From assembly GCA_965243555.1 (NCBI GenBank), contig OZ251575.1:2785639-2849638 (forward strand): a stretch of 64,000 nt of DNA. The letters run 5' to 3'. Below the pieces are notes generated by a model that was given only the letters and a program-made list of their open reading frames with translations, had not been told where the DNA came from and searched no databases. This DNA comes from Spirochaetia bacterium. Its GTDB lineage: Bacteria; Spirochaetota; Spirochaetia; SZUA-6; Bin103. Positions 6,780-36,150 of this stretch are shown here, piece by piece; the stretch's first letter is position 1; each line of letters opens with the position of its first letter. The translations under genes and the position numbers were made by a program.

Positions 6780-8311
6780 GCGACGTGTACCTCACGTTTG
6801 CCGGAGTCTTGGTCGGGATCGGTTTCCGGTTCGGGATCGGCGGCCGCCGCCGGGGCGCGGCCATCCGCCGCCGGGCGGGGCATGGCGGGCGCGTCCGGGA
6901 ATGGGCCGGGCGGTTTGCCGGGCCCGCCTCCCGGCCCGCCGCCCCGCCCCGCGCCGCCCGCGGGCAGGCCGGCGAAGGTGCGCCGCAGCAGCAGGTACCC
7001 GATCCCGAACGCGACCAGATTGGCCGTGACGATCGCCATCCACACGCCGGGAGCGGCGCCGGCTCCGGCGCGGCCGCCGCCCGTGGCCAGCAGCGCGCCG
7101 CCCACCAGGATGGCCACCCGTATCGCGGAAATGGCGAAGCCGCGCCACGACTTGCCCAGTGCCTGCAGCGAGCTGACCACCACGAACAGCGCGGCCACCA
7201 CGCCGTAGGTGAGCGGCACCGTCGCCAGGTAGGAAAGCGTGTACCCCGCCACCTCGGCGTCGTCGGGGGCGAACGCTCCCACGATCACCCCGCGCATCAC
7301 CAGCGCGCCGACGCCCACCAGCGAGCCGAGGACGAAACCGAACAGCAGCCCGGTGCGAAACGCCGCGTGGGCGCGGTCCGGGCGCTGGCCGCCGAGATTC
7401 TGGCCAATCAGCGCCAGCGCGGCCACCCCGAAACCGATGGCCGGCAGGAACGAGAAGAACTCGATGCGCAGGCCGATGGCGAGCCCGGTGACCCCCGCTT
7501 CCAGGAACGCCAGCGCCACCACGGCGTTGAGCGCCGCCAGCGCCGCGGGGTTGAGCAAGTTGGTCAGGGCCGCCGGAAAGCCGATGGCCAACACCTTCCG
7601 CACCGACTGCAACCGGAACACGAGGTTCCGAAAGCGGAAGTTCACCAGCATGTTGCGCTGGTGGAGCAGGGTGATGCCCGCGGTCACCAGCAGTATCTGC
7701 GAAATCACGGTGGCGATGGCGGCGCCGCGCACGCCGAACGCGGGAATCCCGAAGCCGCCGAAGATCAGCAGCGGGTCGAGGGCCGCGTTGATGGTGGTGG
7801 AGATGGCGAACAGCCAGGTGACCGTGGTGTTGTCGCCCTGCGAGTTGAAGCCGAAGATCACGGCGAAGAACACGAACATGAGCACCGAACCGCCGGCGAC
7901 GATGGTGAAGTAGTCCACCGCCAGGGGCAGGATGTCGCCGGCGGCGCCGGTCAAGGTCAGGAGTTGGCGGCGCAGGGTGAGGCATAGCGTGGTAAAGATC
8001 GCGGCGGCGATGAGATTGAGCACGAATGATTGGCCGAGCACCCGTTCCGCCTCGTCGAGGTCGCGGCGGCCGATGCTCATGGCCATGACCACCCCGGACC
8101 CGACGGTGATGCCGATGGTGAGGGAGACCATCACGAACAGGGTGATTTGGGAGACGGTGACCGCGGCGATGGCGTTGGCCGAGACGCGGCTCACCCAGAA
8201 CGCGTCCACCAGTTGATACAGGGTCTGGAAGAAGATGGAGAGCATCACCGGCCAAGCCAGTGACCAGCTCAGTGCCGGGATTGATCCGGTGGTGAGGTTG
8301 CGTCCGCGCAC
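6776..8311 (-). CDS. MATE family multidrug efflux transporter (NorM-like)
   Basis: 511 aa with 12 predicted TM segments in two repeated halves typical of MatE. The C-terminal low-complexity Gly/Pro tail overlaps the Eis-like gene start. Confidence 0.88.
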   Translation of the reverse strand: MRGRNLTTGSIPALSWSLAWPVMLSIFFQTLYQLVDAFWVSRVSANAIAAVTVSQITLFVMVSLTIGITVGSGVVMAMSIGRRDLDEAERVLGQSFVLNLIAAAIFTTLCLTLRRQLLTLTGAAGDILPLAVDYFTIVAGGSVLMFVFFAVIFGFNSQGDNTTVTWLFAISTTINAALDPLLIFGGFGIPAFGVRGAAIATVISQILLVTAGITLLHQRNMLVNFRFRNLVFRLQSVRKVLAIGFPAALTNLLNPAALAALNAVVALAFLEAGVTGLAIGLRIEFFSFLPAIGFGVAALALIGQNLGGQRPDRAHAAFRTGLLFGFVLGSLVGVGALVMRGVIVGAFAPDDAEVAGYTLSYLATVPLTYGVVAALFVVVSSLQALGKSWRGFAISAIRVAILVGGALLATGGGRAGAGAAPGVWMAIVTANLVAFGIGYLLLRRTFAGLPAGGAGRGGGPGGGPGKPPGPFPDAPAMPRPAADGRAPAAAADPEPETDPDQDSGKREVHVA

Positions 8312-8434
8312 GGCCGGCGTAACCTACTACCGATTACGCCGGCAAGCAACGAACCCGCACCCCCACCTGCTCGCCGCTCCCCCAACCGGCCCAACCCGGC
8401 CCACCCAAGTCCAACCGGGGACTTGGCGCCGGCT

Positions 8435-8545
8435 TACGGGCGGTGCGGCGCCGGCTCCCACCACGAACGCGGGCTCACGGGCGGTGCGGCGCCGGCCCCC
8501 ACCACGAACGCCGGATACGGGCGGGTGCCGGCCCCACCGCCGGCT
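8435..8545. repeat. 41-bp tandem direct repeat, about 2.7 copies (unit 'tyacgggcggtgcggcgccggcyc ccaccacgaacgcsgg')
   Basis: Seen directly: units at 8435-8475, 8476-8516 and a partial unit at 8517-8545. It lies in the intergenic region upstream of the MATE/Eis operon (minus strand) and downstream of the DUF4202-like gene. Confidence 0.8.
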
Positions 8546-13347: not shown

Positions 13348-13677
13348 TTACATACAATACAAACAATACAATACAATCTCCCCGCTGGCGCCGGCCGGAG
13401 CTACCGGCGCCGGCGGCTCCCCGGCCGCGGTCTCTACCACCCGCGTGGCGATGCCCTCGCGGCGCAGGTCGGTCTGCATGCGGCGTCCGTTGGCCCCGCC
13501 CAGATAGGCCAGCAGCGTCGCCGGCACTCCCAGAGCGGTGAGCGCGCGCGCCACGTTGACGCCCTTGCCGGCCGCCACGCGCCGCACTTCCCGCACCCGG
13601 TTCACGGCGCCCGCGGTCACGAGCTCAAACCGGTAGATGAGCTGCCACGCGCAGTTCTGCCCACACACCAGGATCAT
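13348..13677 (-). pseudogene. PfkB-family carbohydrate kinase, 5' fragment (truncated after about 85 native codons by AT-rich IS-associated sequence)
   Basis: N-terminus '[51 protein letters not shown]' is ribokinase/PfkB-like. The reading frame runs into the AT-rich repeat at 13345-13380 and stops. The missing 3' part is present only in the second copy (16308-16950). Confidence 0.6.
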
Positions 13678-13893
13678 GCTTCCTTCCCCTCCTGCCGCCC
13701 GCCGCCCCTGCTCCCTTGCGCCGCGAGCGGCCGCGCCCGTACCCTACGGCAGCCTTCACCCATGAAATACCTCGGCGCTCACGTATCCACCGCCGGCGGC
13801 CTGCATACCGCGCCGCCGCGGGCGCAGGCGCTCGGCGCCACGGCGTTCGCCATCTTCACCCGCAACCAGCGGCGCTGGGCCGCCAAGCCCCTC
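13455..13893. repeat. Segmental duplication R2, copy 1 (about 93% identical to 16728-17172)
   Basis: By-eye alignment of the PfkB 5' region, the pfkB-nfo intergenic region and the first ~44 codons of nfo. Confidence 0.8.
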
Positions 13894-14634
13894 ACTGCGC
13901 AGGAGGCCGACTCCTTCCGCGAGCAGTGCGCGGCGGCCGGCATCCCGCTTCGGCGGGTTCTGCCGCACGCCGGCTACCTGATCAACCTGGGCGCGCCCGA
14001 CGCCGCGGTCGTGCGCAAGTCGCAGGCGGCCTTCCTGGACGAGTTCGACCGCTGCCGCCGGCTCGGTCTGCGCGGCCTGAACCTCCACCCCGGCAGCCAC
14101 CTCGGCAAGATGGAGGACGCCGCGTGCATGGACCAGATCGCCGCGTATCTCAATCGGGCCATCGCCGAGATTCCCGACGTGACCGTGGTCTACGAGTGCA
14201 CCGCCGGCCAGGGCAGCCACCTGGGTCATACCTTCGCGCAGCTCGCCGGCCTGATCGACCGCATCGACGACAAGTCACGGGTCGGCGTGTGCCTGGACAC
14301 CTGCCACCTGCACGCCGCCGGCTACGATCTTACCACCGCCGCCGCCTACGAGCGCACCATGCGCGAGTTCGAGCAGGTGGTGGGCCTGCGCTACCTCGCC
14401 GGCGCGCATCTCAACGACTCCAAGACAGCACTCGGCAGCCGGGTGGACCGCCACGCCAGCCTCGGCAAAGGCACGATGGGTTGGGAACCGTTCCGCCTGC
14501 TGATGAACGACCCCCGCTTCGACGAAATCCCCCTCATCACCGAAACCGTCGACCCCGATCTGTGGGCCGAAGAACTAACCCAACTCCGCGCTTTGATCGG
14601 CCGCACCGAGGCCTGCCCCCTCCCGCCCGCCTAG
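13762..14634 (+). CDS. nfo: Endonuclease IV (AP endonuclease family 2)
   Basis: 290 aa from the ATG at 13762; the 542-aa track ORF is an upstream read-through artefact. Motifs '[13 protein letters not shown]', 'HPGSHLG', 'VCLDTCHLHAAGYD', 'AHLNDSK'. Confidence 0.9.
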   Translation: MKYLGAHVSTAGGLHTAPPRAQALGATAFAIFTRNQRRWAAKPLTAQEADSFREQCAAAGIPLRRVLPHAGYLINLGAPDAAVVRKSQAAFLDEFDRCRRLGLRGLNLHPGSHLGKMEDAACMDQIAAYLNRAIAEIPDVTVVYECTAGQGSHLGHTFAQLAGLIDRIDDKSRVGVCLDTCHLHAAGYDLTTAAAYERTMREFEQVVGLRYLAGAHLNDSKTALGSRVDRHASLGKGTMGWEPFRLLMNDPRFDEIPLITETVDPDLWAEELTQLRALIGRTEACPLPPA

Positions 14635-15048
14635 AACCCTATCCACTCACGGGTATCGGCGGAGATAGAATTCTGGGGCGACAGGTCTTCGCCAACGTCG
14701 CTTCTATCAATTTCTGCTCCCTGCGGCTCTCCGGCCAGCCGGTGATATTCGCGTGATTTATGGGGTTGTTATCTATGGCTACCTGCAGGCCGATCCTGTG
14801 TATCGCGCACTCCGTAATGCAGGCCCAACCGTACAATCTCGGCTTTCCGCGCCGCCGTGCAGCTTTTACCCCTCGCGCCCGGACTTCCGAGTCCGTCGTC
14901 TCACCTGCAACGAACTCCACGGACAGCCGTAGATTGTTTGGGGGAGAAAAGAGCTTGGGGTGAATCCGGTTTGATGCCGGTCTGACTTCGTTGCTATGGA
15001 ACGCAAATCTGGCGAAGTAGTCGTCCATCTACGCAGAGTTCCGACATG

Positions 15049-15561
15049 CTATTCCATACAGAGGTCGCGCAGGCAACACTTCATTGTCTCGGGAATACGC
15101 CCGCTCCATGGTTCACATCCGCTGTACTCTCGGCCATCGTCCAGCATGGCGGTCAGCACAACGTCGTCTCCGTCGGGACCTATGCTGAGGGATACGGTCC
15201 CGCCGGCAACAAACCACGTCAGGTCGACTTCGCCCTTCGGCGTCGCACAAACATCCGGCCTGGGAATACCCAAGGGAAGGTCATCCGTGAGCGAGGCGGC
15301 AGCAGCCACGGCCGCCACACCGGGAGGGGCATCGGCACCGTCGCCACTACGATCGATGTCACCTTCGTCCACCGCCAGCGCCTTTATCTCCCGCTTTACG
15401 TCTCGCAACCACTCGTCACCAAGAACACTCATCTCGGTCGCCGTCTCGGTGTCCGCAAACGAAAGTATCCTCAGCGCCAAGGCAGGCATCTTGGGCAAAG
15501 TGAACGGCTGTTCCGGCATGGCACTCGGTTCCGGTTCAAAGGCAATTGCCGCGCTACTCAT
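15049..15561 (-). CDS. Hypothetical acidic protein (170 aa), low-GC cassette gene 2
   Basis: Clean ORF with a 4/8-bp overlap to the upstream 144-aa ORF, in a roughly 52-55% GC island. No recognisable domain. Confidence 0.45.
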   Translation of the reverse strand: MSSAAIAFEPEPSAMPEQPFTLPKMPALALRILSFADTETATEMSVLGDEWLRDVKREIKALAVDEGDIDRSGDGADAPPGVAAVAAAASLTDDLPLGIPRPDVCATPKGEVDLTWFVAGGTVSLSIGPDGDDVVLTAMLDDGREYSGCEPWSGRIPETMKCCLRDLCME

Positions 15562-15988
15562 AGGTAACCCCTAGCTCTTTTCTCTTCAGTAGTCGACCGT
15601 CGATGACAAAGTCAATAAGGTAAGTGCCTTCCGAATAGGTGACGGAAGATGGTATGTCAAATCGCAGAAAGCCGGAATCTCCTTCTTTCGCGCCATCAGT
15701 TGTAGACCGGGTAATCAGCTTCCCCTCAATAGAATAGGCCGCCTCCTCACTATTGTCATTTTTTGCTACCGTGAGGCGGACCGTGTACTCCCTATTGTAC
15801 TCCACACCGGTCAGTTCGACGAGGATCCCCCAGGGAGGGCCGTTGCGACGATCACCCGTGGATGATTCACGGCTACGGAGTGTGAGGGCGGAAAATATGC
15901 CGACCGCGCCATACCGATCATCGCTTTCATGAATTATGCGATCAGCAACTATGAAGTTGATTATGTCCAGCGCCATATCACCCACCAC
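15554..15988 (-). CDS. Hypothetical protein (144 aa), low-GC cassette gene 1
   Basis: Clean ORF, predicted all-beta, in the low-GC island. No recognisable domain. Confidence 0.45.
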   Translation of the reverse strand: MVGDMALDIINFIVADRIIHESDDRYGAVGIFSALTLRSRESSTGDRRNGPPWGILVELTGVEYNREYTVRLTVAKNDNSEEAAYSIEGKLITRSTTDGAKEGDSGFLRFDIPSSVTYSEGTYLIDFVIDGRLLKRKELGVTYE

Positions 15989-16066: not shown

Positions 16067-16307
16067 TGCGGGTGCGAACGTCTGAAACGGCACGCATCAT
16101 CCAAGTCAGCGCGCCGGGCCGGATCAAGTCACCGGCGCACGGCCCCGAGCCGCGCATGGCGGTAGCGGTGATGGGCGGCGCACAGCAGCCGGAGATTGTC
16201 GGGCTCGGCGCTGGCCTCCATGCGCATACGGCACGACGTGATCGATTTCCAGCAGATTCCGGGAGCCGCACCGGCGCCCGCTGCCCCGGTCCACGTAGCT
16301 GCAGCAG
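16067..16307. repeat. Segmental duplication R1, copy 2
   Basis: See R1 copy 1. Confidence 0.8.
16124..16307 (-). pseudogene. HNH endonuclease 3' remnant (frameshifted copy of the 9289-9480 region)
   Basis: Translations '...CCSYVDRGSGRRCGSRNLLEIDHVVPYAHGG' and, in another frame, 'SAEPDNLRLLCAAHHRYRHARLGAVRR*' show the HNH C-terminus split across frames. Confidence 0.65.
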
Positions 16308-16950
16308 AACAGCACCCACTGCACTCCGTGCCGGTCGCGCAGGCGGCGGCAGAAGGCCGCCCGATCCGCGGCCAACTCGGCCAATTCAGCGCGGTTGATC
16401 TTGAGGATTTCGGGCGCGGCCGCCAGGGCTGCGCGGGCGTGGTCGCGGTAGGCGTCGAGCAGCGTGGGCACCCCACGCCGGTGCGCCAGCCGCACCATCT
16501 CGGCGTATACCTCGGGATGCGCGCCGCCGATCGCGGTGCCGGCAATCACCACCGCCGCGGCGTTCCCCAGCAACTCCTCGTAGGCGGCCGCGAAGCGTTC
16601 CTGCTCAGCGCCGCTCGCTGCCGCGGCCGGCTCCACCAGTTCCGTTACCTGCCGCGCCGGCCCCGCCGCCGGCCCCTCCAGCAGCGTGACGCAGGTGCGG
16701 GTGTCGGCCGCCGTCTCCACCACACGCGCGCGATGCCCTCGCGGCGCAGGTCGGTCTGCATGCGGCGTCCGTTGGCCCCGCCCAGATAGGCCAGCAGCGG
16801 CGCCGGCACTCCCAGCGCGGTGAGCGCGCGCGCCACGTTGACTCCCTTGCCGGCCGCCGCGCGCCGCACTTCCCGCACCCGGTTCACGGCGCCCGCGGTC
16901 ACGCGCTCGAATCGGTAGATGAGCTGCCACGCGCAATTCTGCCTGCACAC
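16308..16950 (-). pseudogene. PfkB-family carbohydrate kinase, second copy with a 1-nt deletion (frameshift near 16740) and the 3' end fused to the HNH remnant
   Basis: The N-terminal 74 residues match copy 1. At 'atcgcgcgcgtgtggtgg' versus copy 1 'atcgccacgcgggtggta' one base is missing and the frame shifts. The downstream frame continues with the PfkB core ('...AAVVIAGTAIGGAHPEVYAEMVRLAHRRGVPTLLDAY...') and reads into HNH sequence without a stop. Confidence 0.65.
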
Positions 16951-17172
16951 CAGGATTATGCTGCATGCCCCACCTGCCCGCGCCTCCCTTGCGCCGCGAC
17001 CGGCCGCGCCCGTACCCTACGGCTGCCTTCGCCCATGAAATACCTCGGCGCTCACGTATCCACCGCCGGCGGCCTGCACACCGCGCCGCCGCGGGCACAG
17101 GCGCTCGGCGCCACGGCGTTCGCCATCTTTACCCGCAACCAGCGGCGCTGGGCCGCCAAGCCCCTCACCGAG
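16728..17172. repeat. Segmental duplication R2, copy 2
   Basis: See R2 copy 1. Confidence 0.8.
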
Positions 17173-17192
17173 CAGGAGGCAGAATCATGGAC
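17035..17192 (+). pseudogene. Endonuclease IV 5' fragment (first ~44 codons of nfo, then divergent sequence and a stop)
   Basis: '[45 protein letters not shown]' is identical to the nfo N-terminus, then 'EQEAESWT*'. The vsr start codon lies inside the divergent tail. Confidence 0.65.
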
Positions 17193-17624
17193 ATAGTGGA
17201 CGCGCAAACGCGCAGTAGGATGATGTCCGGAATCAAAGGTCGCGACACGGTACCCGAGGTCGTCGTCCGGCGAGTCGCGCACCGCATGGGGTTCCGCTTT
17301 CGTTTGTATCGTAAAGACTTGCCAGGGAGGCCCGATCTAGTGTTCCCAAGGTACCGGGCCGTTGTCTTCGTTCATGGATGTTTCTGGCATAGACACCAAG
17401 GTTGCCGGTACGCCTACACTCCCCGGACCAGAGTGCGGTTTTGGATGGGAAAGTTCAGCGACAACGTCGCGCGGGACCGCCGAACAGAGCAAGCTCTGGT
17501 CACGCTCGGCTGGCGGATCCTGGTCATCTGGGAGTGCGAGACGCGCAACGAGGCAGTCGTGCGGGAGCGTCTTCGAGAGTACCTCCCCCAGACAGACTAC
17601 GGGACAAGCGAACCAGCAACGTGA
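17187..17624 (+). CDS. vsr: Very-short-patch-repair (Vsr) endonuclease
   Basis: 145 aa. '[54 protein letters not shown]...RFW..K...NV.RDRR...L...[11 protein letters not shown]' matches Vsr along its full length. RBS 'aggagg' lies 7 nt upstream. The catalytic Asp of the E. coli 'FVDGCFWH' motif is His here ('FVHGCFWH'). Confidence 0.9.
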
Positions 17625-18574
17625 TCACGGCATGCGACATCTTCTGCGGCGCCGGCGGTAGCAGCGCCGGAGCGCGGGCAGCAGGCATCACGATCGTAGC
17701 CGGCATCGACATGTGCCCGACCGCGACGGCAACCTTCGCTGCGAACTTTCCCGAAGCCCATGTCGTTACGAGTCGGCTTGAAGATGTTGACACCGACGAA
17801 TTCAGCATCCGGGTGGGAAAGATTGACCTTCTCCTGGCATCGCCGGAGTGCCGGAACCACACCTGCGCCAGAGGCGCCGCGCCGCGAGACGAGTCCAGCC
17901 GTGCCACGGCGATGCAGGTCGTCGAGTATGCCCGTGCGCTCAGCCCGCGATGGGTCATTCTCGAGAATGTCATCTACATGCGCCCGTGGTCGCGGTACGG
18001 CGAGCTGAAGCGAAAGCTGAACGACCTTGGGTACCTCCTTGAAGAGCGCACGCTCGACGCTTCAGACTTCGGCGTGGCGCAAGCGCGGCGGCGGTTGTTT
18101 CTCATCGGCGATCGTGAACGGTCGCCCAACGTGACGCTTCACGGACGCCCCGGCAGGCGCAAGCCCGCCAAATCCATTCTCGATGCCACCGGAACCTGGA
18201 AGACCACGCCCCTGTTCAAGCCGAAACGCGCGCCCGCTACGATCGAGCGGGCCAAGCGCGGATTCGCCGCTCTCGGCGGGCGGTCCAGCTTCCTGCTGGT
18301 CTACTACGGCAGCGACGGCAGCGGGGGATGGCAGCCGCTTGACCGTCCCCTGCGCACCATCACCACGCTGGACCGATTCGCACTCGTGGAGCACAACGGC
18401 AAGACGTGGACCATCCGTATGTTGCAGGTGCCCGAGCTCAGGCGCGCCATGGGGTTCGGCGATCGCTTCGAACTGCCCGCCGGCACGCGCCGCGACCGAA
18501 TCCGGCTTCTTGGCAACGGTGTCTGCCCTCCGGTGATGGAAGCGGTGGTCCGATCATTGATTTCCAAGGGATAA
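17621..18574 (+). CDS. DNA (cytosine-5)-methyltransferase
   Basis: GTG start overlapping the vsr stop (GTGA). Motif I 'DIFCGAGG', motif IV region 'LLASPEC' (atypical PEC instead of PCQ), motif VI 'ILENVIYM', motif VIII 'QARRRLFLIG', motif IX/X 'LRRAMGFGDRFELPA...LLGNGVCPPVMEAV'. Confidence 0.88.
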   Translation: MITACDIFCGAGGSSAGARAAGITIVAGIDMCPTATATFAANFPEAHVVTSRLEDVDTDEFSIRVGKIDLLLASPECRNHTCARGAAPRDESSRATAMQVVEYARALSPRWVILENVIYMRPWSRYGELKRKLNDLGYLLEERTLDASDFGVAQARRRLFLIGDRERSPNVTLHGRPGRRKPAKSILDATGTWKTTPLFKPKRAPATIERAKRGFAALGGRSSFLLVYYGSDGSGGWQPLDRPLRTITTLDRFALVEHNGKTWTIRMLQVPELRRAMGFGDRFELPAGTRRDRIRLLGNGVCPPVMEAVVRSLISKG

Positions 18575-18589
18575 CGGCGAACCGCCGAA

Positions 18590-19171
18590 CTACGGCTCAA
18601 TGGTGAGAGCGCGTGGATCGATGCTGACCCGATCCGGGAATACCACGAGGTTGGGCAGCACCGGGTTGCGGGCAGAAGGCGTGAGGAACCCCTGGCAACT
18701 GGTCCGGTGGTGGTATAGCGCTTCGCCGAGTTGCTGGGTCGGTGCCGGGCCGCTTGATGCTACCGCCGATGCAACCGTACGACTATCGTAGTCGAACCAG
18801 TCGCCGGTGAGCTCCTGGACAGTCGTCGTGACCGTAGAACGTCCACCACAGATTCGGAAGTCCGCAACCCGATCCAGACGCACGGTGACTCCGACCACGG
18901 ACCAACCGCACGGAACCCGCCGAACGGGTCCACGTCGGGGATGTCCCAGCAGGCAGCCTACTTCAAGCAACGCACTAAACCGGTCCGGCGCCAGATACAG
19001 CAGAGGATAGCGGCCATCTTCTCGTTTGAATCTGGTAGTACTGCTCAACGTGTGCTGCCATGCCAGCGGATACCGGGCATACTTGCGAGGAACGGCCCGA
19101 TACCACTGCGTCTTCCCGTATCCGCCTCCCGGCAACGCGCGGAGTGGCAGCTTTCCGACAGCGCAAGTCAT
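18590..19171 (-). CDS. RES-domain toxin (MbcT/Res-like NAD+-degrading toxin family)
   Basis: 193 aa. 'QWYRAV...TTRFKREDGRYPLLYLAPDRFSALLEV' parallels the RES core of MbcT 'YRY...GEGARRFGGRWNPPLLFPAIYLADSAQACMVEV' (R, E and S positions conserved). The start codon overlaps the upstream gene's stop (ATGA). Confidence 0.8.
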   Translation of the reverse strand: MTCAVGKLPLRALPGGGYGKTQWYRAVPRKYARYPLAWQHTLSSTTRFKREDGRYPLLYLAPDRFSALLEVGCLLGHPRRGPVRRVPCGWSVVGVTVRLDRVADFRICGGRSTVTTTVQELTGDWFDYDSRTVASAVASSGPAPTQQLGEALYHHRTSCQGFLTPSARNPVLPNLVVFPDRVSIDPRALTIEP

Positions 19172-20169
19172 GAGAAAGACCCATCATCGAGCGAATCGAG
19201 GAAACTCGAAATTTTCCGCAGCCGCGTTGCGTCGACTTCCCGGGCACGAAAAAACCGTCCGGGAGTATCATCTTCGAACATTGGGTTCGGAACGTCCAGC
19301 CACTGCTCGAAACTCTGCAGACGTCGTACGAATGGATCGAAACCCGGCATTTCCCGGAATCGTATTTCCAGACGACGCCGTACGATTTCCCGCACGGCCA
19401 GGGGGTGGCTGAGCGCCCTGGAAGTAGCGATCGCGTTCACGAGACGGTCGATAAGAAACAGCATGCCTACGTCGCCGCTGTCCAGCATTTGTCGCGGCGT
19501 CTGTCCGAAGTCGGTCAGATCGGCGTCCATCCAGTCACTCAGGGACGAGCTGCGCGACGGAAACCCAGGCGGCACGTCGTCAGTGCACGGCGTTTCGGCC
19601 GCGGCGAACAACCGGCGCAGGCGCCCGATGATTTCCTCCCGAGTGGGACGGTAGGGCTCCACCAACTCCGGATCGGCTTCCGGTTCGAAGAGAGCGGCAG
19701 CTTCGGGGAGCGTCGCAATCCGGGCGGCTATGTCCTCCATCAGCGCCGCTTCATCCCGGATGCCGCCGGCTTCGTCCAGATAGTCCGCCTTGGGCAGCGG
19801 CACAACGGTGGACGGCCTCGCCACCCCGTGATGGAGACGATCGGTAAGAAACTTGTAGAGTCCCGGAGCCTGATCCTGATACAGAGTCCATAACAGGATC
19901 AGATACGGCAGGGCCGGCTTGATCCTCCCTTCCAGCAATGCCCCGATCGTGCTGAAGTCGGTGCTATGATCACCGGCGATCGCCCCGCCACCAAGATGGA
20001 GATCGGCAAAGATCACTCGCACGTCCGGGCACGGTTCAATGTTCGCCATGTCCTCCGTAAAGGGAATCTGAAGGCAAGGCACGCCGCGGCGATTGAGACT
20101 GTTGGCCAAGGCCGCCAGATGATCCGGCTCGTCGTCAATGGCTATGACTTGCGGGGATCTCAGCATCAC
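19168..20169 (-). CDS. Response-regulator receiver (REC) domain fused to an MbcA/ParS/Xre-antitoxin-type (DUF2384-like) C-terminal domain
   Basis: 333 aa. N-terminus 'VIAIDDEPD...VRVIFADLHLGGG...LILLWT...YKFL' carries the REC acidic pocket, the phospho-acceptor Asp, and the conserved T and K. C-terminus '...TPRQMLDSG...QWLDVPNPMFEDDTPGRF...ISSFLDSLDDGSF' aligns with the MbcA toxin-binding motif 'VWMFSPNRLLEHRKPADL...ALIDAMAEGVF'. No HTH is evident. ATGA overlaps on both sides. Confidence 0.75.
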   Translation of the reverse strand: MMLRSPQVIAIDDEPDHLAALANSLNRRGVPCLQIPFTEDMANIEPCPDVRVIFADLHLGGGAIAGDHSTDFSTIGALLEGRIKPALPYLILLWTLYQDQAPGLYKFLTDRLHHGVARPSTVVPLPKADYLDEAGGIRDEAALMEDIAARIATLPEAAALFEPEADPELVEPYRPTREEIIGRLRRLFAAAETPCTDDVPPGFPSRSSSLSDWMDADLTDFGQTPRQMLDSGDVGMLFLIDRLVNAIATSRALSHPLAVREIVRRRLEIRFREMPGFDPFVRRLQSFEQWLDVPNPMFEDDTPGRFFRAREVDATRLRKISSFLDSLDDGSFS

Positions 20170-22349
20170 CTCTCTTCCTTGAATATCATGGCGACCACCG
20201 CCCCGTCGAACTCATCGGGCAGATCGACTTCGCCCTGCTGCGGAAAGGCTAGTCGGCCGTCGTTCAGCTCCATCGCCAGATTGGCATAGTACAGGCCAAG
20301 GCCCATGCCGTCCGGCTTGCGGGTGAAAAACGGCCGAACGAAGTGTTCGGGAACGTCGTCGGCGAATCCCGGGCCGTTGTCGGCAACGACGATTGCCGGA
20401 CCGCCATCGAAGTCCCTCCACGTGCCCACGAACAGGCGGCGTTCGGAACCGTCGCCGTCCCCAGCGGCCTCCGGCCACCTTACCCGCAGCCAATAGATCG
20501 CGTTGTCGATCAGGTTGTTCAATGCCCCTAGCACCAATCCGAACGAAAAACTGGACTCGAAACCGGCGCCGTCGTCAAGCAGCGGGCAGACCAGCCCGAC
20601 GCGATGGTAGCGCAGCCGCAGTAGATTGAATTGCCGGGCCGCGGCGACGAGCTTGCGGGCGCCGTGTTTGCGCTTACTGTCCCGTCGGAGCAACGTGGAA
20701 AAGCCGCCAAGGACCCGCATGAGTTCCTGGGCCTGCCGCGCGGCCCCTGCCAAGTCCTTGCCTTCCACGATTACCTGATGCAACGCGCGAACGCCCCGTT
20801 CTACCTCATGGAACACGACGGCGAGGTTGAGGCCGGACATCCCGGCCGCAAGCAGGGTATCCTGCATGTTCGTATAGTCCCGCTCGATTCTCGCGACGTA
20901 TGGTTCGAAAGTATCGGCTTGGCCCTCCCGGTCAAGCGCCTTTCTCAACTCCGCGACCGGCTTTTCAATTCGGGATACCGTGGGGCCGCCCGGACTCGCA
21001 GCAAGCTGTCGGAGCCGTTCCTTGTCGAACTGGCGTTCTTCCTCCAGCGCCCCGAGCGCCCCGAGAACAATCTGGCGCAGACGCCGGCATGCGTCGTTTT
21101 CGACAAAGCCTTCGCGATTGGTCTTCTCCACGAGCTCGACCGACGACTGCAGCGACAGATGAACCGCCCCCAGGACGATGTTCCGGCTGATCCGACGGGT
21201 CGGGATGTTCACGCGCCGGAGGTCGAGGCCGAGCCAATCGTCGCCCTCCTCCCCGTAGTTGTACACGCGGATGCCGTCGCGGTAAACGCGAACCCCACCG
21301 TACTCATCAAGATACTCGGTCAGCAGTCGCGTATCCCCCAGACGCTGCAGCACCTCCCGGTCGCGGTCGAACACGTGAAACTCGCCGGACACGCGACCGA
21401 TTCCCTGTGTCGTTCCGGCATCGGCGAGCACTTTCCGCGTCCTTCTCCCGTCATCGGAGCTCGGGGGAAGTTTCAGGCTTACGCCGACCTTCTCGACTGT
21501 TCTTCCGTCCAGCTTGAATCCTGGGACCTTCCTGAACTCATAGCGCCAGTCGAAGCATCCCTCGTCATCCAGCCGGAACGAGAACTTCCAGGACGCTCGA
21601 TCGACCAGGGCGGCAAAGTCAGGCAGGTCTGATATCCAGTGTTCGTACCCGGGAACCTCAAGAGTAGCCCGGAAGCGTCCCGGTTCCTCGAATGGCGAGC
21701 AGATCGAGGTAATCTGATTGTGCAGCCGCCGCACTTCGCGCCGCGACCACACCGGAGGCCGCAGTTCACGGACCTCGATCCGCGTTCCGGTCGCGCCCTC
21801 GGAGAACACCTCGGGCTTGCGAAACCCTATCCGCACGGGCGCTTCGTCCAGGAACGGCTTATCGATCAGTTCATTCCAATCGATTTCCACCACGCATTCA
21901 TCGGCATCTCGGGCGCGTGTCGTCAGCCGTATGTAGTTTCCCAGTTTGTGAACGGCGAACCTCCCCAGCCCTTTTTCGCCAAGAGGAAGTCGATTATACC
22001 TCGGAGAACGGCGACGCTCCGCCCGTTGCCTGCTACGGTGATCATCACCCGGCGCCAGCCACACCGAACGCAGCAAGTCCAGGGTCATGCCTTCGCCATC
22101 GTCGGTAATCGTGATCGCCGGCTCGCGTGCTGGAAGGTCGAACCCCGCAAGGTCCGGTTGATCGCCCGCGTCGGGTTCGTCCTGCGCGCCGACGTCGATC
22201 CGGATCACTGCCTCGTTGGCGTCCGCGTCGTAGGCGTTCTTGACCAACTCGAAGACCGCCAGCCGCGGACTGCCGATCAGTTCGTCGCCAAGCAACTGAA
22301 GCACTCTGGCCCGGGGCCGGAATGGCTGACTGACTTCTCCGAGCGTCAC
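20166..22349 (-). CDS. Histidine-kinase-like protein with two GHKL ATPase domains (N-terminal HATPase_c_3/MORC-like, central putative H-box, C-terminal HATPase_c)
   Basis: 727 aa. N-terminal Bergerat motifs 'ELVKNAYDADA' (N-box), 'ITDDGEGM' (G1), 'GEKGLGRFA' (G2). Central 'VVFHEVERGVRAL' resembles a HisKA H-box (candidate phospho-His). C-terminal 'LIDNAIYW' (N), 'VADNGPGF' (G1), 'GMGLGLYYANLA' (G2). No TM segments. The stop overlaps the REC gene start. Confidence 0.8.
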   Translation of the reverse strand: MTLGEVSQPFRPRARVLQLLGDELIGSPRLAVFELVKNAYDADANEAVIRIDVGAQDEPDAGDQPDLAGFDLPAREPAITITDDGEGMTLDLLRSVWLAPGDDHRSRQRAERRRSPRYNRLPLGEKGLGRFAVHKLGNYIRLTTRARDADECVVEIDWNELIDKPFLDEAPVRIGFRKPEVFSEGATGTRIEVRELRPPVWSRREVRRLHNQITSICSPFEEPGRFRATLEVPGYEHWISDLPDFAALVDRASWKFSFRLDDEGCFDWRYEFRKVPGFKLDGRTVEKVGVSLKLPPSSDDGRRTRKVLADAGTTQGIGRVSGEFHVFDRDREVLQRLGDTRLLTEYLDEYGGVRVYRDGIRVYNYGEEGDDWLGLDLRRVNIPTRRISRNIVLGAVHLSLQSSVELVEKTNREGFVENDACRRLRQIVLGALGALEEERQFDKERLRQLAASPGGPTVSRIEKPVAELRKALDREGQADTFEPYVARIERDYTNMQDTLLAAGMSGLNLAVVFHEVERGVRALHQVIVEGKDLAGAARQAQELMRVLGGFSTLLRRDSKRKHGARKLVAAARQFNLLRLRYHRVGLVCPLLDDGAGFESSFSFGLVLGALNNLIDNAIYWLRVRWPEAAGDGDGSERRLFVGTWRDFDGGPAIVVADNGPGFADDVPEHFVRPFFTRKPDGMGLGLYYANLAMELNDGRLAFPQQGEVDLPDEFDGAVVAMIFKEER

Positions 22350-25041: not shown

Positions 25042-27503
25042 GACGCCCCTCCGCCCTTGCCTTTGGCCTTGCCCGTTCCGTTGCCCTTGGACGTGGCGCT
25101 GCCTTTGGGAGTGGCGCTGGCTTTGACCTTGCCCTTGCCGCCCGGCGCACCGCGCGCCGCGCCGCCGGCTGCCCCGGCTGTGCGCCCGGCGCCCGGCGGC
25201 GCACTACCCCCGGGCGCAGCCCGCCCGCCGCCCGGCGGCGCGTCACCCCCGGGCGCGGCCCGCCCGCCGCGCGGTGGCGCGTCACCCCCGCCGTCCGCCC
25301 CAGCGCCCGCCCCCGGGGGCGGCGCACTACCACCGGCCGCGCCGGCGGCGAACTCCGCGCGGATGCGGCGCCGGCGCATCTCGCCGAGCAGCCACACCGC
25401 CACGCCGGCCAGCACCACCAGCGCCGGCAGGCCGGCCACGGCGAAGGTCTTGAGGGCGGTGCGCGCCGGCGGCTCGATGGTGCGCAACGGGCGCACCCGC
25501 CGGCCCTTGGTGCGCATCAGCGCGCGGTCCTCGCGCCCGTTCATGGCGTCAATCAGGTTGAGCACGAGCAGCGCGTTGGGGTTGCGGCCCTGCACGTCGA
25601 TAAAGCCGCTGCCCAGAATTGCCGAGGTGCCCACCACGAACAACGTCCCTTCCCCCTCGGGGGTAAAACTCTGCTCGGCCTGCAGCTCCTCGGCGGAGAT
25701 CACCGGCGCGGCGTCCTCTTCATCATCCTGCGACGAAGGCTCCTCGCGCGGGCGTTCGGGAATCTCGCGGTCCGCGAAGTAGCTGCTAAAGGAGCCCTCG
25801 GCCAGAATCGCCAGCGGGAACGCGGCGCGCTCATCCTCGCCCGGCGGCTCCGCCCCCATCAGGTCGATCTGCCCCGCCATCTCCCAGGCGGTCGCCGATG
25901 TGCGCAGCGCCTCGGTGTAGGTAACCCCGGCCTGTTGCCCGCTCACCACCTCCAGCGGCGAGATGTTGAGCATGATCAGCTCCTCCAGGTTGGTGAGAAA
26001 CGGCACGCTCTGATCGATCTGATCTTCCTGCAGCCGCGGCGCAAAGTAGATTTCGCTCTCCACGAAGCCGCCGCGCGGCGACGGCTGGCGCTGCACGAAC
26101 GACTGCTCGTCGAGCACGTAGGACTGCTTGAGCCGGATTCCGTAGTGCTCCAGCATCGCCTCCAAACCGGTCTCGCGGGGCAGATGGAAGGCGCCGCCCC
26201 CGCCGAATCCTCCGCCCTGGTTCACGAAAATGTTGTGCGAGTCCAGGAACAGCATCAGCGACCCGCCGCGCAACAGAAACTGGTCGATCTGAAACAGCGC
26301 CCACTCGTTGAGTGGCTCCTGCGGGCCGACCACCAGCATGCTGCGCAGGCCCTCCGGCACCGGGCGCTCCTCCAGCAGTAGGCCGCGGTAGGTGTACTCC
26401 GCCGATACCAGTTGGAACAGGTTGGTGAGCTCCGCCTCCACCACGTCGGTCGGGGTGGTGGGATTGGCGCGTCCGCGGTAGGGCGGCGTCTCGAAGTCGG
26501 CCAGGTAGCCCATCTCCTCCTGGGTGCCGAGCAGGTTCTTGAGGGTGTCGTCCAGGGAGCGGCGGATGGTCTCCTGGTCGGCAATCTGGTAGCCCATGAT
26601 GCTGGCCTGCAGCAGGTTCATGGTGATGGTGGTGCCGGCCGAGGTCACCGACACGCCGGCGTAGGCGATCTCGGCGCTGCCGTCCGGGGCCTGGAGCTGC
26701 AGCGGCGCCAGACGCAGGCGGGTCGCCTCCTCCGGCGTCACCAGCTCGGCGTTGGCGTCGACGTGCTCGAACTGCAGGCGGTCGAAGTAGCCGGCGTTGA
26801 GCTCCCTGACCAGCCCCTCGATCTCCGCCGGAATCTCCTCCACTCCCGGCGCCAGCATGGCGAGCGAGGACGAAAAATAAAGCTGCACCTTGATGTCTTC
26901 TTCCAACGCCAGCAGGCGGCTGATGCGTTCGGTGAGCTTGGTGATCGCCTCGGTGATCGTGAGCTCCAACTGGTCGGTGTCGGTGATCGACGGGATGGTC
27001 TCGATCAGGTCGCCGTGAATCAGCGCCATGCCGGTATAGGCGGTGCTCAGCGTCACCTCGTCGCGGTCGAGCTGCTCGATCTGGATCGGATAGATCAGGT
27101 ACTGGCGCGCCAGCTCCTCGTTGGCGATTGCCTCTTCCTGGCCCACCTCCTCGGCGCCCATGGCGACAAACTGGTAGTTGAACAGGTCACCGCCGTGCAC
27201 CGCGTACTCGTCAAGCAGGTCGCGCACCTCCTGCTCCACCGTGTTGTAGGGGGCGGGCAGGTTGGGCGTAAAGAAGGCGCGGATGGTGAGCGGCTCGCGC
27301 AGCGCCGAGACCGCGTCGATGCTCGGCGGCGACAGGGCGTAGAGGCCGCCCTCGGTAAGGTCGAAGCGCCGGAACAGGCCCGACGCCGAGGAGACGTTGA
27401 TCATCACCACCGCGCCGAGAAACAGGGCGATCTCCAGTACCCGCAAGCCGGTGCGCAACGGCTTGTTGCCGCCGCGGCCGCCGTGGTCTTCGCGGCCCCT
27501 CAT
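25038..27503 (-). CDS. GldG-like ABC transporter auxiliary/substrate-binding component
   Basis: About 821 aa from the ATG overlapping the permease stop. N-terminal TM segment, large periplasmic domain, C-terminal TM segment and a Gly/Ala/Pro-rich tail. Architecture matches gliding-motility-associated GldG. Confidence 0.7.
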   Translation of the reverse strand: MRGREDHGGRGGNKPLRTGLRVLEIALFLGAVVMINVSSASGLFRRFDLTEGGLYALSPPSIDAVSALREPLTIRAFFTPNLPAPYNTVEQEVRDLLDEYAVHGGDLFNYQFVAMGAEEVGQEEAIANEELARQYLIYPIQIEQLDRDEVTLSTAYTGMALIHGDLIETIPSITDTDQLELTITEAITKLTERISRLLALEEDIKVQLYFSSSLAMLAPGVEEIPAEIEGLVRELNAGYFDRLQFEHVDANAELVTPEEATRLRLAPLQLQAPDGSAEIAYAGVSVTSAGTTITMNLLQASIMGYQIADQETIRRSLDDTLKNLLGTQEEMGYLADFETPPYRGRANPTTPTDVVEAELTNLFQLVSAEYTYRGLLLEERPVPEGLRSMLVVGPQEPLNEWALFQIDQFLLRGGSLMLFLDSHNIFVNQGGGFGGGGAFHLPRETGLEAMLEHYGIRLKQSYVLDEQSFVQRQPSPRGGFVESEIYFAPRLQEDQIDQSVPFLTNLEELIMLNISPLEVVSGQQAGVTYTEALRTSATAWEMAGQIDLMGAEPPGEDERAAFPLAILAEGSFSSYFADREIPERPREEPSSQDDEEDAAPVISAEELQAEQSFTPEGEGTLFVVGTSAILGSGFIDVQGRNPNALLVLNLIDAMNGREDRALMRTKGRRVRPLRTIEPPARTALKTFAVAGLPALVVLAGVAVWLLGEMRRRRIRAEFAAGAAGGSAPPPGAGAGADGGGDAPPRGGRAAPGGDAPPGGGRAAPGGSAPPGAGRTAGAAGGAARGAPGGKGKVKASATPKGSATSKGNGTGKAKGKGGGAS

Positions 27504-34528: not shown

Positions 34529-34874
34529 GCCGCCCAGTCTACGCCGCGGCGCGGCCGCCGGCAAAGCGCGGGCGGGCGGCGGTGGCGCGGGCCGCGGGGT
34601 ACTGCGGACGCCGGGGCCGCCCGGCACGCCACGGGCGAACGCGGCGCGAGCGGACGCGGCGCCGGGGCGGGGCGAACGCGCACGGGCGGACGCGGCGCGA
34701 GCGGACGCCGACGCCACGCCACGCCGGGCCGGGGTTGCGCGGTGCCTTACCCGCGCGCAAGCATGGCGCGATGCCGCCCCCTGCCACGCCTGCCGCTGCC
34801 ACGCCCGCCCCGGCCGCTGCCGGCGCCGCTCCTGGCGACGCCTCCGGGGTACCGCCGGCGCGGCCGCCGGGTCC

Positions 34875-36150
34875 ATGGCGGCGGTGGCGCTGTTCGCCGC
34901 CGGCGGCCACTTCAGCATCGAGTTGGTCTCCAACTTCCTGCCCATCGTCTATCCAATCCTGGTCGCCGAGGCCGGCTTCTCGTTTGCCCGGGTGGGCACC
35001 GTCACCCTGGTCGCCACCCTGGGAATCACCCTGCCGCAGCCGCTGCTCGGGCTGGTGCTGAAGCGTTTTGCGGCCGGCCGCCTGGTGCTCCTGGCGGTGG
35101 TGTGGTGCGGCCTGTTCTACGGCGCCGTGGGGCTGGCGCCGCAGTTCGGGTGGCTGCTGGTGTGGGTGGCCCTGGGCGGGCTCGGGTCGGCGCTGTTCCA
35201 CCCCGCCGGCGCCGTGGTTGCCGCGGCCGCCCACCGCCGGCGGCGCGGCGCCTCCATGTCGATCTTCTCGGTGGGCGGCAACCTCGGCGCGGCCCTGAGT
35301 CCGCTGTTGATGGCCGCGGTCATCGGCTGGCAGGGGCTGCGCGGCACGCTGGTCACCGTGCCCCTGGCGCTGGTCATGGCCGCGCTGCTGTGGCTCGCCG
35401 GCGGGCGCGCCGCGGCTGCCGGCGGCCTCGCCCGGCCGCAGCGGCCGGGCGCCGGTCCCCGCCCCGCGCCTCCGCCAACCAAGCCGGCGACGGCAGCGCG
35501 CGCCGCCCCCGGCGCCCCGCTGCCCGCGGCAGCCGCCCGCACCACGACCGCCGCCGCTACCGGGGCTTTGGCCCTGGCCTTGATCGTGTTGTTCGCCATG
35601 ACGCGGGCCTGGTATCAGGTATCGCTCACCACCTACCTGCCGTTGTGGATCGCCGCCCACGACGGCGCCGGTATCGGCCCCGCGCAGGCGTTGTTCGTGC
35701 TGGTGGGCAGCCTGCCCGCCGGCAGCCTGCTGGGCGGCGCGCTGTCGGACCGCGCCGGGCGCTGGCCGGTGGTGCTGGCCGCGGCCGCGTTGCTGGCGGC
35801 GGCCAACGGCGTCCTGCTGGCGGTCGGCCCCGGCGCCCACCCCGCGGCCGTGCTGGCCCTGACCGGCGCCATCGGCTGCCTGATCGGCATGACCTACCCG
35901 GTGGCCATCATCATGGCGCAGGAGGCGTGGCCGCGCGACGTCGGCTTGGCCGGCGGCTTGGTGATGGGGTTGGGCTGGCTGCCGGGGGGCGTCGGCGCGT
36001 CGGTAGTCGGAGCGCTGGCCGACCGCGCCGGTCTGGAGGGCGCGTTGGCTACGCTGACGATTCCGTTGCTGGCCGGGTGGCGGCGCTCGGCGCCTACGCC
36101 GCCATCACGCGGACCACCGCACGGCGCCGGGCCGGGCCGCGGGTCTTGTG
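34875..36150 (+). CDS. MFS transporter (3' end uncertain)
   Basis: 12 clear TM segments from 'MAAVALFAAGG...' to '...LTIPLLAGW'. The coding frame has no stop before 36881 and would overlap the downstream ABC gene by about 700 nt. A frame-2 stop at 36151 suggests a frameshift or sequencing error near the 3' end. Confidence 0.55.

Follow-up and report, generated by a model that had tools for sequence, protein, structure and literature searches.

A methylase-linked kinase/receiver cassette in a Spirochaetia genome with a predicted RES toxin-antitoxin pair as its output

The closest described relatives of the locus analyzed here are gene pairs reported by Bellieny-Rabelo, Pretorius & Moleleki (2021; PMC8011034), in which a histidine kinase-like (HK-like) protein, made up of HATPase_c_3, HEF_HK and HATPase_c domains, is linked to a response regulator-like (RR-like) protein carrying a Response_reg_2 domain. 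The HK-like proteins, related to paraMORC ATPases, showed this linkage in 91.6% of cases (644 regions), and C5 methylases and Vsr were overrepresented in these regions. The RR-like proteins contained no other known domain; a regulatory role was speculated upon in this purely computational work, from which RES, PIN and DUF2384 are absent. We analyzed a stretch of 64,000 nucleotides from a Spirochaetia bacterium (assembly GCA_965243555.1, contig OZ251575.1, positions 2,785,639 to 2,849,638 of the forward strand; hereafter, the window) which harbors a five-gene cassette of this general kind. Two plus-strand genes, vsr and dcm, face three minus-strand genes named A, B and C; all five are full length with their catalytic residues intact. 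As judged from homology, the usual ~270-residue output domain of B is here replaced by two DUF2384 repeats, with the gene for a predicted RES toxin behind it. The reading that we favor, and to which we give about an even chance of being right, is that of a mobile, methylase-linked kinase/receiver cassette whose phosphorelay would gate the RES toxin.

Compared feature by feature at the sequence level, the window matches the published description of the pairs. Like the HK-like proteins, protein A of the window is soluble, has the same three-part architecture and carries a conserved histidine followed by an acidic residue. Protein B, like the RR-like proteins, is encoded in the adjacent position, has the DD/D/T/K residues of a receiver and shows a split strand 5, and the cassette as a whole shares the linkage to a C5 methylase and Vsr. 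Unlike the published pairs, that of the window has a toxin-antitoxin pair as its output. As far as we could find, the kinase/receiver/methylase chassis has already been published as a prediction and the toxin-antitoxin outputs (RES, and PIN in related loci) are undescribed. Full-text literature searches combining DUF2384 or RES with a receiver or response regulator found nothing, those on related defense systems turned up no account of this arrangement, and no system-level match was obtained from PADLOC or NCBIfam. A first-pass annotation of the window, made from the DNA letters and their translations, had not recognized the architecture as a described system and had put it forward as a novel candidate. 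This stands for the toxin-antitoxin output; since a kinase-like/receiver-like pair is already present in PMC8011034, it does not stand for the architecture as a whole.

Other known systems resemble parts of the cassette. RES-Xre modules (MbcTA, ParST, Res-Xre) have in common with it a RES protein with an R/E/S triad, a DUF2384 antitoxin gene upstream and an ATGA overlap between the two genes. The antitoxin of the window differs in having no helix-turn-helix (HTH) of the Xre type, in carrying an N-terminal receiver and in possessing two DUF2384 repeats; moreover, the pair forms part of a methylase cassette and is preceded by a kinase gene of its own. Detocs is an abortive-infection system driven by a phosphorelay and composed of a kinase (DtcA), a buffer receiver (DtcB) and a receiver-effector (DtcC). 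The window, known from its genes alone, is like Detocs in concept: a two-component-style phosphorelay in which a receiver would control a metabolite-degrading effector. It departs from Detocs in the absence of a buffer receiver, in the MORC-like ATPase that takes the place of the Detocs sensor, in its linkage to a methylase and in its effector, a separate toxin with an antitoxin as opposed to a fused nucleosidase. Membership in Detocs was considered and rejected, since PADLOC gave no match for B or C and, for A, just a weak REase_II one at the N-terminus. The analogy with Detocs made in the first-pass annotation is one of concept; PADLOC detected no sequence relationship.

ParaMORC GHKL proteins are found in restriction-modification contexts, frequently beside cytosine methylases and Vsr (PMC2292703; Iyer et al. 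2008), and in the GHKL-Shedu nuclease VcSduA, a validated anti-phage protein, the GHKL domain was found experimentally to be required (PMC12137116). Protein A is like the MORC/paraMORC ATPases and VcSduA in having an N-terminal GHKL ATPase of the type found in conflict systems; unlike A, those proteins have neither a C-terminal DHp and kinase domain nor a receiver partner. The BbrUII/HgiDII enzymes have a similar N-terminal GHKL domain and also keep company with C5 methylases, whereas the remainder of A is unrelated to them. NCBIfam gave partial matches only on A, with many sensor kinases at the C-terminus and, at the N-terminus, the BbrUII/HgiDII family (NF050001; residues 77-200, 59 bits versus a cutoff of 550). 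The possibility that A is a BbrUII/HgiDII-like restriction enzyme of the dcm system was rejected because the GHKL domain alone matches.

The features of the cassette are as follows, in window coordinates:

17187..17624, plus strand: vsr, very-short-patch repair endonuclease gene, directly upstream of dcm (Pfam Vsr, 3.6e-28).
17621..18574, plus strand: dcm, C5 cytosine DNA methyltransferase gene (Pfam DNA_methylase, 8e-34); the longest open reading frame (ORF) begins at 17402, the conserved portion near 17621.
18590..19171, minus strand: gene C, predicted RES-domain toxin of 193 residues with an R47/E70/S166 triad (Pfam RES, 2.4e-12).
19168..20169, minus strand: gene B, 333 residues, receiver-like domain plus two DUF2384-type repeats (ORF, 32 full-length homologs, AlphaFold).
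19171..19314, minus strand: residues 286-333 of B, DUF2384-like repeat 2 (W290..PNP..TP..LDSLDDGSFS; sub-threshold PF09722).
19441..19539, minus strand: residues 211-243 of B, DUF2384 (Xre_MbcA_ParS_C) repeat 1 (Pfam, 3.2e-5).
19666..20157, minus strand: residues 5-168 of B, divergent receiver (REC-like) domain (profile match, fold).
20002-20004, minus strand: D56 codon of B, candidate phospho-acceptor.
20166..22349, minus strand: gene A, soluble dual-GHKL protein of 727 residues (ORF, Pfam, 31-sequence alignment).
20244..20525, minus strand: residues 609-702 of A, histidine-kinase catalytic (CA) domain (Pfam HATPase_c, 3.8e-12).
20808..20810, minus strand: H514 codon of A, candidate phospho-histidine in the H-box VFHEVERG (invariant in 31 homologs).
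21867..22265, minus strand: residues 29-161 of A, N-terminal Bergerat fold (HATPase_c_3, MORC/MutL-like; Pfam, 2e-12, conserved motifs).

The three minus-strand ORFs are where the first-pass annotation had placed them. Of the ATGA overlaps that it reported at both junctions, the one between B and C is genuine. The A/B junction reads GTGATG, where either of two start codons, GTG or ATG, overlaps the TGA stop codon of A, by 4 nt and 1 nt respectively; A and B are coupled, though the junction is not ATGA. The dcm gene and gene C are convergent, their stop codons lying 15 nt apart. GC content is 0.61-0.65 at 17-22 kb versus 0.69-0.72 in the flanks, which agrees with the lower GC noted previously for this region. 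Scans for promoters and terminators gave results at or below chance.

In protein A, a paraMORC-like ATPase is followed by a middle domain, then by a DHp helix and lastly by a histidine-kinase catalytic domain. The two Bergerat folds and the H-box proposed in the first-pass annotation are borne out by the Pfam matches listed above and by the alignment of the 31 homologs, where both H514, within 'VFHE(V/I)ExG', and E515 are invariant. In the same alignment, the N-terminal motifs ELVKNAYDA, DDGEGM and GEKGLGRFA are conserved, as are the boxes of the catalytic domain: N (LNNLIDNA), G1 (DNGPGF), F (PFFT) and G2 (GMGLGL). The H-box motif is also found in homologs encoded by Burkholderia, Agrobacterium and Rhizobium plasmids. 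No segment of A reaches transmembrane values of hydrophobicity; the protein is predicted to be soluble, in keeping with the cytoplasmic location suggested earlier. Homologs of A are abundant, with 4948 matches among 8000 scored candidates; in a phage collection they were encountered in two small unannotated metagenomic fragments only.

The receiver relationship of protein B is visible only by profile comparison against the PDB and by fold. A profile made of 32 full-length homologs matches a solved response regulator (3rqi_A, E=2.9e-5) over residues 5-168, aligning the 'FADLHLG' stretch of B to the phospho-Asp motif. In the AlphaFold model (predicted local distance difference test score, pLDDT, 89.5), the N-terminus is made of alternating strands and helices, with long loop insertions and with helix 2 missing; Foldseek searches with the model yielded mostly receiver domains, with weak E-values. 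In 46 sequences representing all three output types described below, D56, T95 and K127 show no variation and D12/D13 hardly any. Only from its position at the end of modelled strand 5 is K127 inferred to be the functional lysine of the receiver, a placement that matches the split strand 5 of the published RR-like proteins (PMC8011034). Thus, the complete receiver domain called in the first-pass annotation is upheld by its residues and fold, as a divergent member of the class.

In the remainder of B, DUF2384 repeat 1 scores 24.3 bits in Pfam versus a cutoff of 24.5, and PF09722 is found precomputed for 14 B homologs. When repeat 2 was scanned alone, PF09722 was the sole family match (E=0.025, with values of 3.5e-4 to 7.7e-3 for homologs). 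A stand-alone DUF2384 antitoxin of 80 residues aligns to both repeats (E=1e-4 for repeat 2). The first reading of the sequence had correctly placed a DUF2384 domain in B but had located it at the extreme C-terminus, which turns out to be the second, weaker copy. Neither the family scans nor the model revealed an HTH or other DNA-binding domain in B, the absence of the former having already been remarked upon.

Protein C belongs with the RES toxins. In an alignment of 47 RES sequences, R47, E70 and S166 are invariant, and a profile of these sequences matches MbcT (6fkg_A, E=3.4e-4), with R47 aligned to the arginine of the MbcT 'GGRWN' motif and E70 to the glutamate of 'MVEV'. Solved RES toxins were not reached by searching with protein C alone or with a 4-sequence profile. 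With respect to the R/E/S core initially proposed, the domain call holds; the arginine quoted then, in 'GRY' (R54), is not conserved, the invariant one being R47 in 'SRFK'. The closest RES toxins found outside the cassette (38-44% identical) pair with stand-alone DUF2384 antitoxins of 75-80 residues that have no HTH. Because these nearest free-standing toxins use such small antitoxins, it appears from the comparison that a complete small toxin-antitoxin pair was captured by the receiver, the antitoxin becoming fused to it. This disagrees with the original proposal that the receiver replaced the DNA-binding half of an antitoxin, as the antitoxins of the closest RES relatives have no HTH to replace.

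To place the cassette among its relatives, B homologs were gathered from metagenomes and from a genome set in which each species has a single representative, and homologs of the window's proteins were then located in each locus. A census of outputs in the 236 B-family sequences retrieved distinguished three types. In 174, the receiver is followed by the ~270-residue domain, with no extra gene. Two DUF2384 repeats are present in 37 sequences (~15%; the receiver was also detected in 34 of these), with the RES gene directly downstream. About 15 (~7%) end in a VapB-like tail of ~35 residues, 'GAWGELDDEEVDxLxEEIYAARR', and are overlapped by a PIN/VapC gene. A RES gene lay directly downstream of B in 8 out of 8 distinct RES-type loci examined, and none of the RES- or PIN-type loci checked lacked its toxin gene. 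The ~270-residue domain gave no match in Pfam or among PDB sequences and no fold match above those to receiver domains; in none of the B forms did the family scans and the model disclose a recognizable DNA-binding domain. The finding of the same receiver, behind the same kinase, joined to three outputs supports the idea, put forward at the outset, that the receiver may gate a toxin. In a neighbor-joining tree of the receivers, the RES type falls into at least two groups, interleaved with the other types, a method too weak to claim independent fusions.

The A-B linkage is general. An A homolog (62-85% identical) lies directly before B in 34 out of 34 distinct loci, the same order is found on 3 plasmids, and a 4-nt A/B overlap occurs in essentially every related locus. 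A C5 methylase and/or Vsr adjoins the pair, usually in convergent orientation, in 31 of the 33 loci with enough flanking sequence. The Dcm protein (67-86% identical to that of the window) occupies the same position in most of the related loci, with Vsr as its conserved partner, and the convergent dcm/RES arrangement is conserved, with stop codons 14-15 nt apart. Hence, the vsr-dcm segment (17187-18574), initially taken for a mere neighbor of the operon, is to be regarded as part of the unit.

Cassette hosts are metagenome-assembled genomes (MAGs) of many phyla, and the receiver forms 971 clusters at E<=1e-3 in a representative library. The same combination of A (50-54% identical), B, Vsr and Dcm occurs in Burkholderia glumae, Agrobacterium and Rhizobium on plasmids that are conjugative or large; A and B are annotated there merely as 'ATP-binding protein' and 'hypothetical protein'. 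These plasmid copies, in B. glumae BGR86S, Agrobacterium salinitolerans DG3-1 and Rhizobium gallicum IE4872, are of the unknown-domain type. Restriction, pAgo-like, Schlafen-like, TIR, AbiE and NERD genes are found next to related loci. Among the related cassettes (L003/L004, 1003-4344; L006, 1814-3094), neighbors include a HATPase_c_4 protein of 1113 residues with a weak Piwi match and Schlafen/AlbA_2-HATPase_c_4 proteins; L035 has B and vsr separated by an inserted AbiEi/AbiEii pair. HATPase_c_4/Piwi, Schlafen and AbiE neighbors are typical defense-island company. A decaying copy of the cassette was encountered in one MAG (L030, 7861-10000), where A is in five fragments and B and dcm are split too. 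Distant relatives of A (25-28% identical), annotated as 'sensor histidine kinase' and followed by other receiver-like proteins, are encoded by plasmids of Enterobacter mori (L037, 4977-8199) and Hymenobacter volaticus (L038, 3628-8762). The receiver partner in Enterobacter gave a sub-threshold Response_reg match, and the Hymenobacter pair has an N6 DNA methylase on one side and an MBL-fold hydrolase on the other. The dual-GHKL kinase/receiver theme is therefore not confined to one type of methylase or of effector.

In the favored reading, the cassette would operate as follows. At rest, the DUF2384 repeats of B would keep RES inactive. A would detect a DNA-linked danger signal through its N-terminal ATPase and middle domain, the candidates being foreign or unmethylated DNA or some interference with methylation. 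A would then autophosphorylate at H514 and the phosphoryl group would be passed to D56 of B. The phosphorylated receiver would shift its conformation or oligomeric state, letting go of RES, which would break down NAD+, so that the cell is halted or killed before the invader can spread. With other effectors, the same switch would operate in the PIN-type and unknown-domain versions. The intact signatures, the A-B coupling, the retention of the toxin genes, the swappable outputs, the defense-type neighbors and the lower GC would all fit such a scheme.

Several observations weigh against it. HisKA-type Pfam models do not match A at E<=1, nor does the Pfam Response_reg model (PF00072) match B of the window at that threshold. 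The 3rqi alignment puts the canonical Lys-Pro at positions 118-119 of B, which are not conserved in the window's clade. PF19191 (HEF_HK) and PF19192 (Response_reg_2), whose presence in the library searched is unconfirmed, gave no match at E<=1 to the window proteins or to 64 family members; the same result, with the same proviso, was obtained for the homologs from Burkholderia, Agrobacterium and Rhizobium (genera named in PMC8011034), Enterobacter and Hymenobacter. A comparison of A homologs identified no region diverging with the type of the partner Dcm, and so gives no sign that A reads the target sequence of the methylase. Two toxin-type loci (L003 and L041) have no methylase or Vsr gene within 7-8 kb, indicating that the methylase is usual and not obligatory. 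The RES-type examples all come from metagenomes or MAGs. Lastly, phosphorylation could either release or restrain the toxin.

This last point leads to an alternative that we consider unlikely, in which the sign of the switch is inverted. A would be constitutively active on healthy, methylated host DNA, keeping B phosphorylated, and only phosphorylated B would neutralize RES, so that loss of the signal would free the toxin. Triggers might then include loss of the cassette, a collapse of ATP, shut-off of the host or an inhibitor of the methylase, and the role of the cassette, with similar reserve, would be nearer to addiction or to guarding of the methylase. Restriction-modification and toxin-antitoxin modules commonly act as addiction elements (discussed in PMC8011034), the tight convergent layout of dcm and the RES gene is conserved, and no Dcm-matched region for trigger recognition was found in A, all of which are in accord with this possibility. 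The existence of toxin-type loci without dcm or vsr (L003, L041) speaks against it. So does the fact that phosphorylation activates rather than inactivates most response regulators. Sequence does not discriminate between release by phosphate and hold by phosphate.

A quite unlikely alternative is that the receiver of B merely docks A, and that the nucleotide state of the GHKL domains controls B and the toxin by contacts, without His-Asp transfer. The absence of a canonical Pfam match to Response_reg or HisKA and the long loop insertions and missing helix 2 of the modelled receiver are compatible with a scaffold of this sort, and there are precedents in the Shedu- and MORC-type GHKL ATPases, which regulate nucleases without phosphotransfer (PMC12137116, PMC2292703). 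However, the invariance of H514, D56, T95 and K127, the near invariance of D12/D13 and the full conservation of the kinase ATP-lid boxes across phyla would be hard to explain without catalysis.

It is very improbable, in our view, that the cassette is a regulatory two-component system tuning the neighboring methylase or restriction genes, to which RES and the repeats were fused by chance as an unrelated pair. Although such a regulatory role has been speculated upon in print (PMC8011034), no form of B has a recognizable DNA-binding domain, and two unrelated toxin-antitoxin families have been independently joined to the same receiver with the toxin gene always kept. That the locus is what remains of a mobile element, decaying or no longer functional, as the duplication and probable frameshifted HNH remnant in the adjoining segment and the fragmentation of A in L030 might suggest, is scarcely credible in the face of five full-length genes with intact catalytic residues, of copies 95-98% identical occurring elsewhere and of dozens of conserved homologs.

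The adjoining segment of the window shows signs of rearrangement. Two divergent genes, one for a PfkB-family kinase and the other nfo (AP endonuclease 2), have their 5' ends duplicated in a direct repeat of ~470 bp, the copies of which (13448-13913 and 16730-17186) are 94-95% identical and 3.28 kb apart. The second copy ends exactly at the start of vsr, which suggests that duplication or recombination has reshaped the junction of the cassette. In a related locus (L001), vsr comes after a complete nfo gene. Between the two copies, in the stretch of lowest GC (0.56), three small minus-strand ORFs of 129, 170 and 144 residues (14639-15988) look like a separate small insertion. No convincing family match was obtained for them, the only hits being to DUF6941 (E=0.006) and to PADLOC PDC-M32A (E=0.015). 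At ~16130-16400, on the minus strand, two overlapping frames, to which a truncated copy of PfkB is fused, contain the halves of an HNH-endonuclease-like motif, 'C.Y......CGS..LEIDHVVPYAHGG' and 'NLRLLCAAHHR'; read from the translations alone, these frames are probably a frameshifted HNH remnant. Elsewhere in the window, strong excursions in AT skew (+0.31 at 7001-8000 and -0.40 at 35001-36000) occur in very GC-rich sequence (up to 0.77), and short tandem repeats of 39-51 nt are found at 8427-8535, 25183-25290 and 34604-34715. Both the skew excursions and the tandem repeats are unrelated to the cassette.

Returning to the favored reading, a broader claim can be made, which we think possible while rating it a little short of an even chance: that type II toxins are under the direct control of a His-Asp phosphorelay, with a DNA-monitoring, MORC-like histidine kinase setting free a RES NADase (in related loci, a PIN RNase) by phosphorylating a receiver-antitoxin fusion, and that the whole cassette family, with its roughly one thousand clusters at 50% identity in many phyla, serves in immunity or addiction, is tied to methylation and can exchange one death effector for another, and is not a gene regulator. 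The RES and PIN versions amount to a natural experiment, indicating that the output position of the receiver can hold a neutralized toxin; they argue for an effector function, by way of cell suicide or restriction, over one in transcriptional control. The toxin-antitoxin outputs give a large uncharacterized family its first concrete clue to function. If phosphotransfer does occur, this would be the first toxin-antitoxin pair in which neutralization is set by a two-component phosphorelay, and it would represent a new coupling of DNA methylation status to abortive infection.

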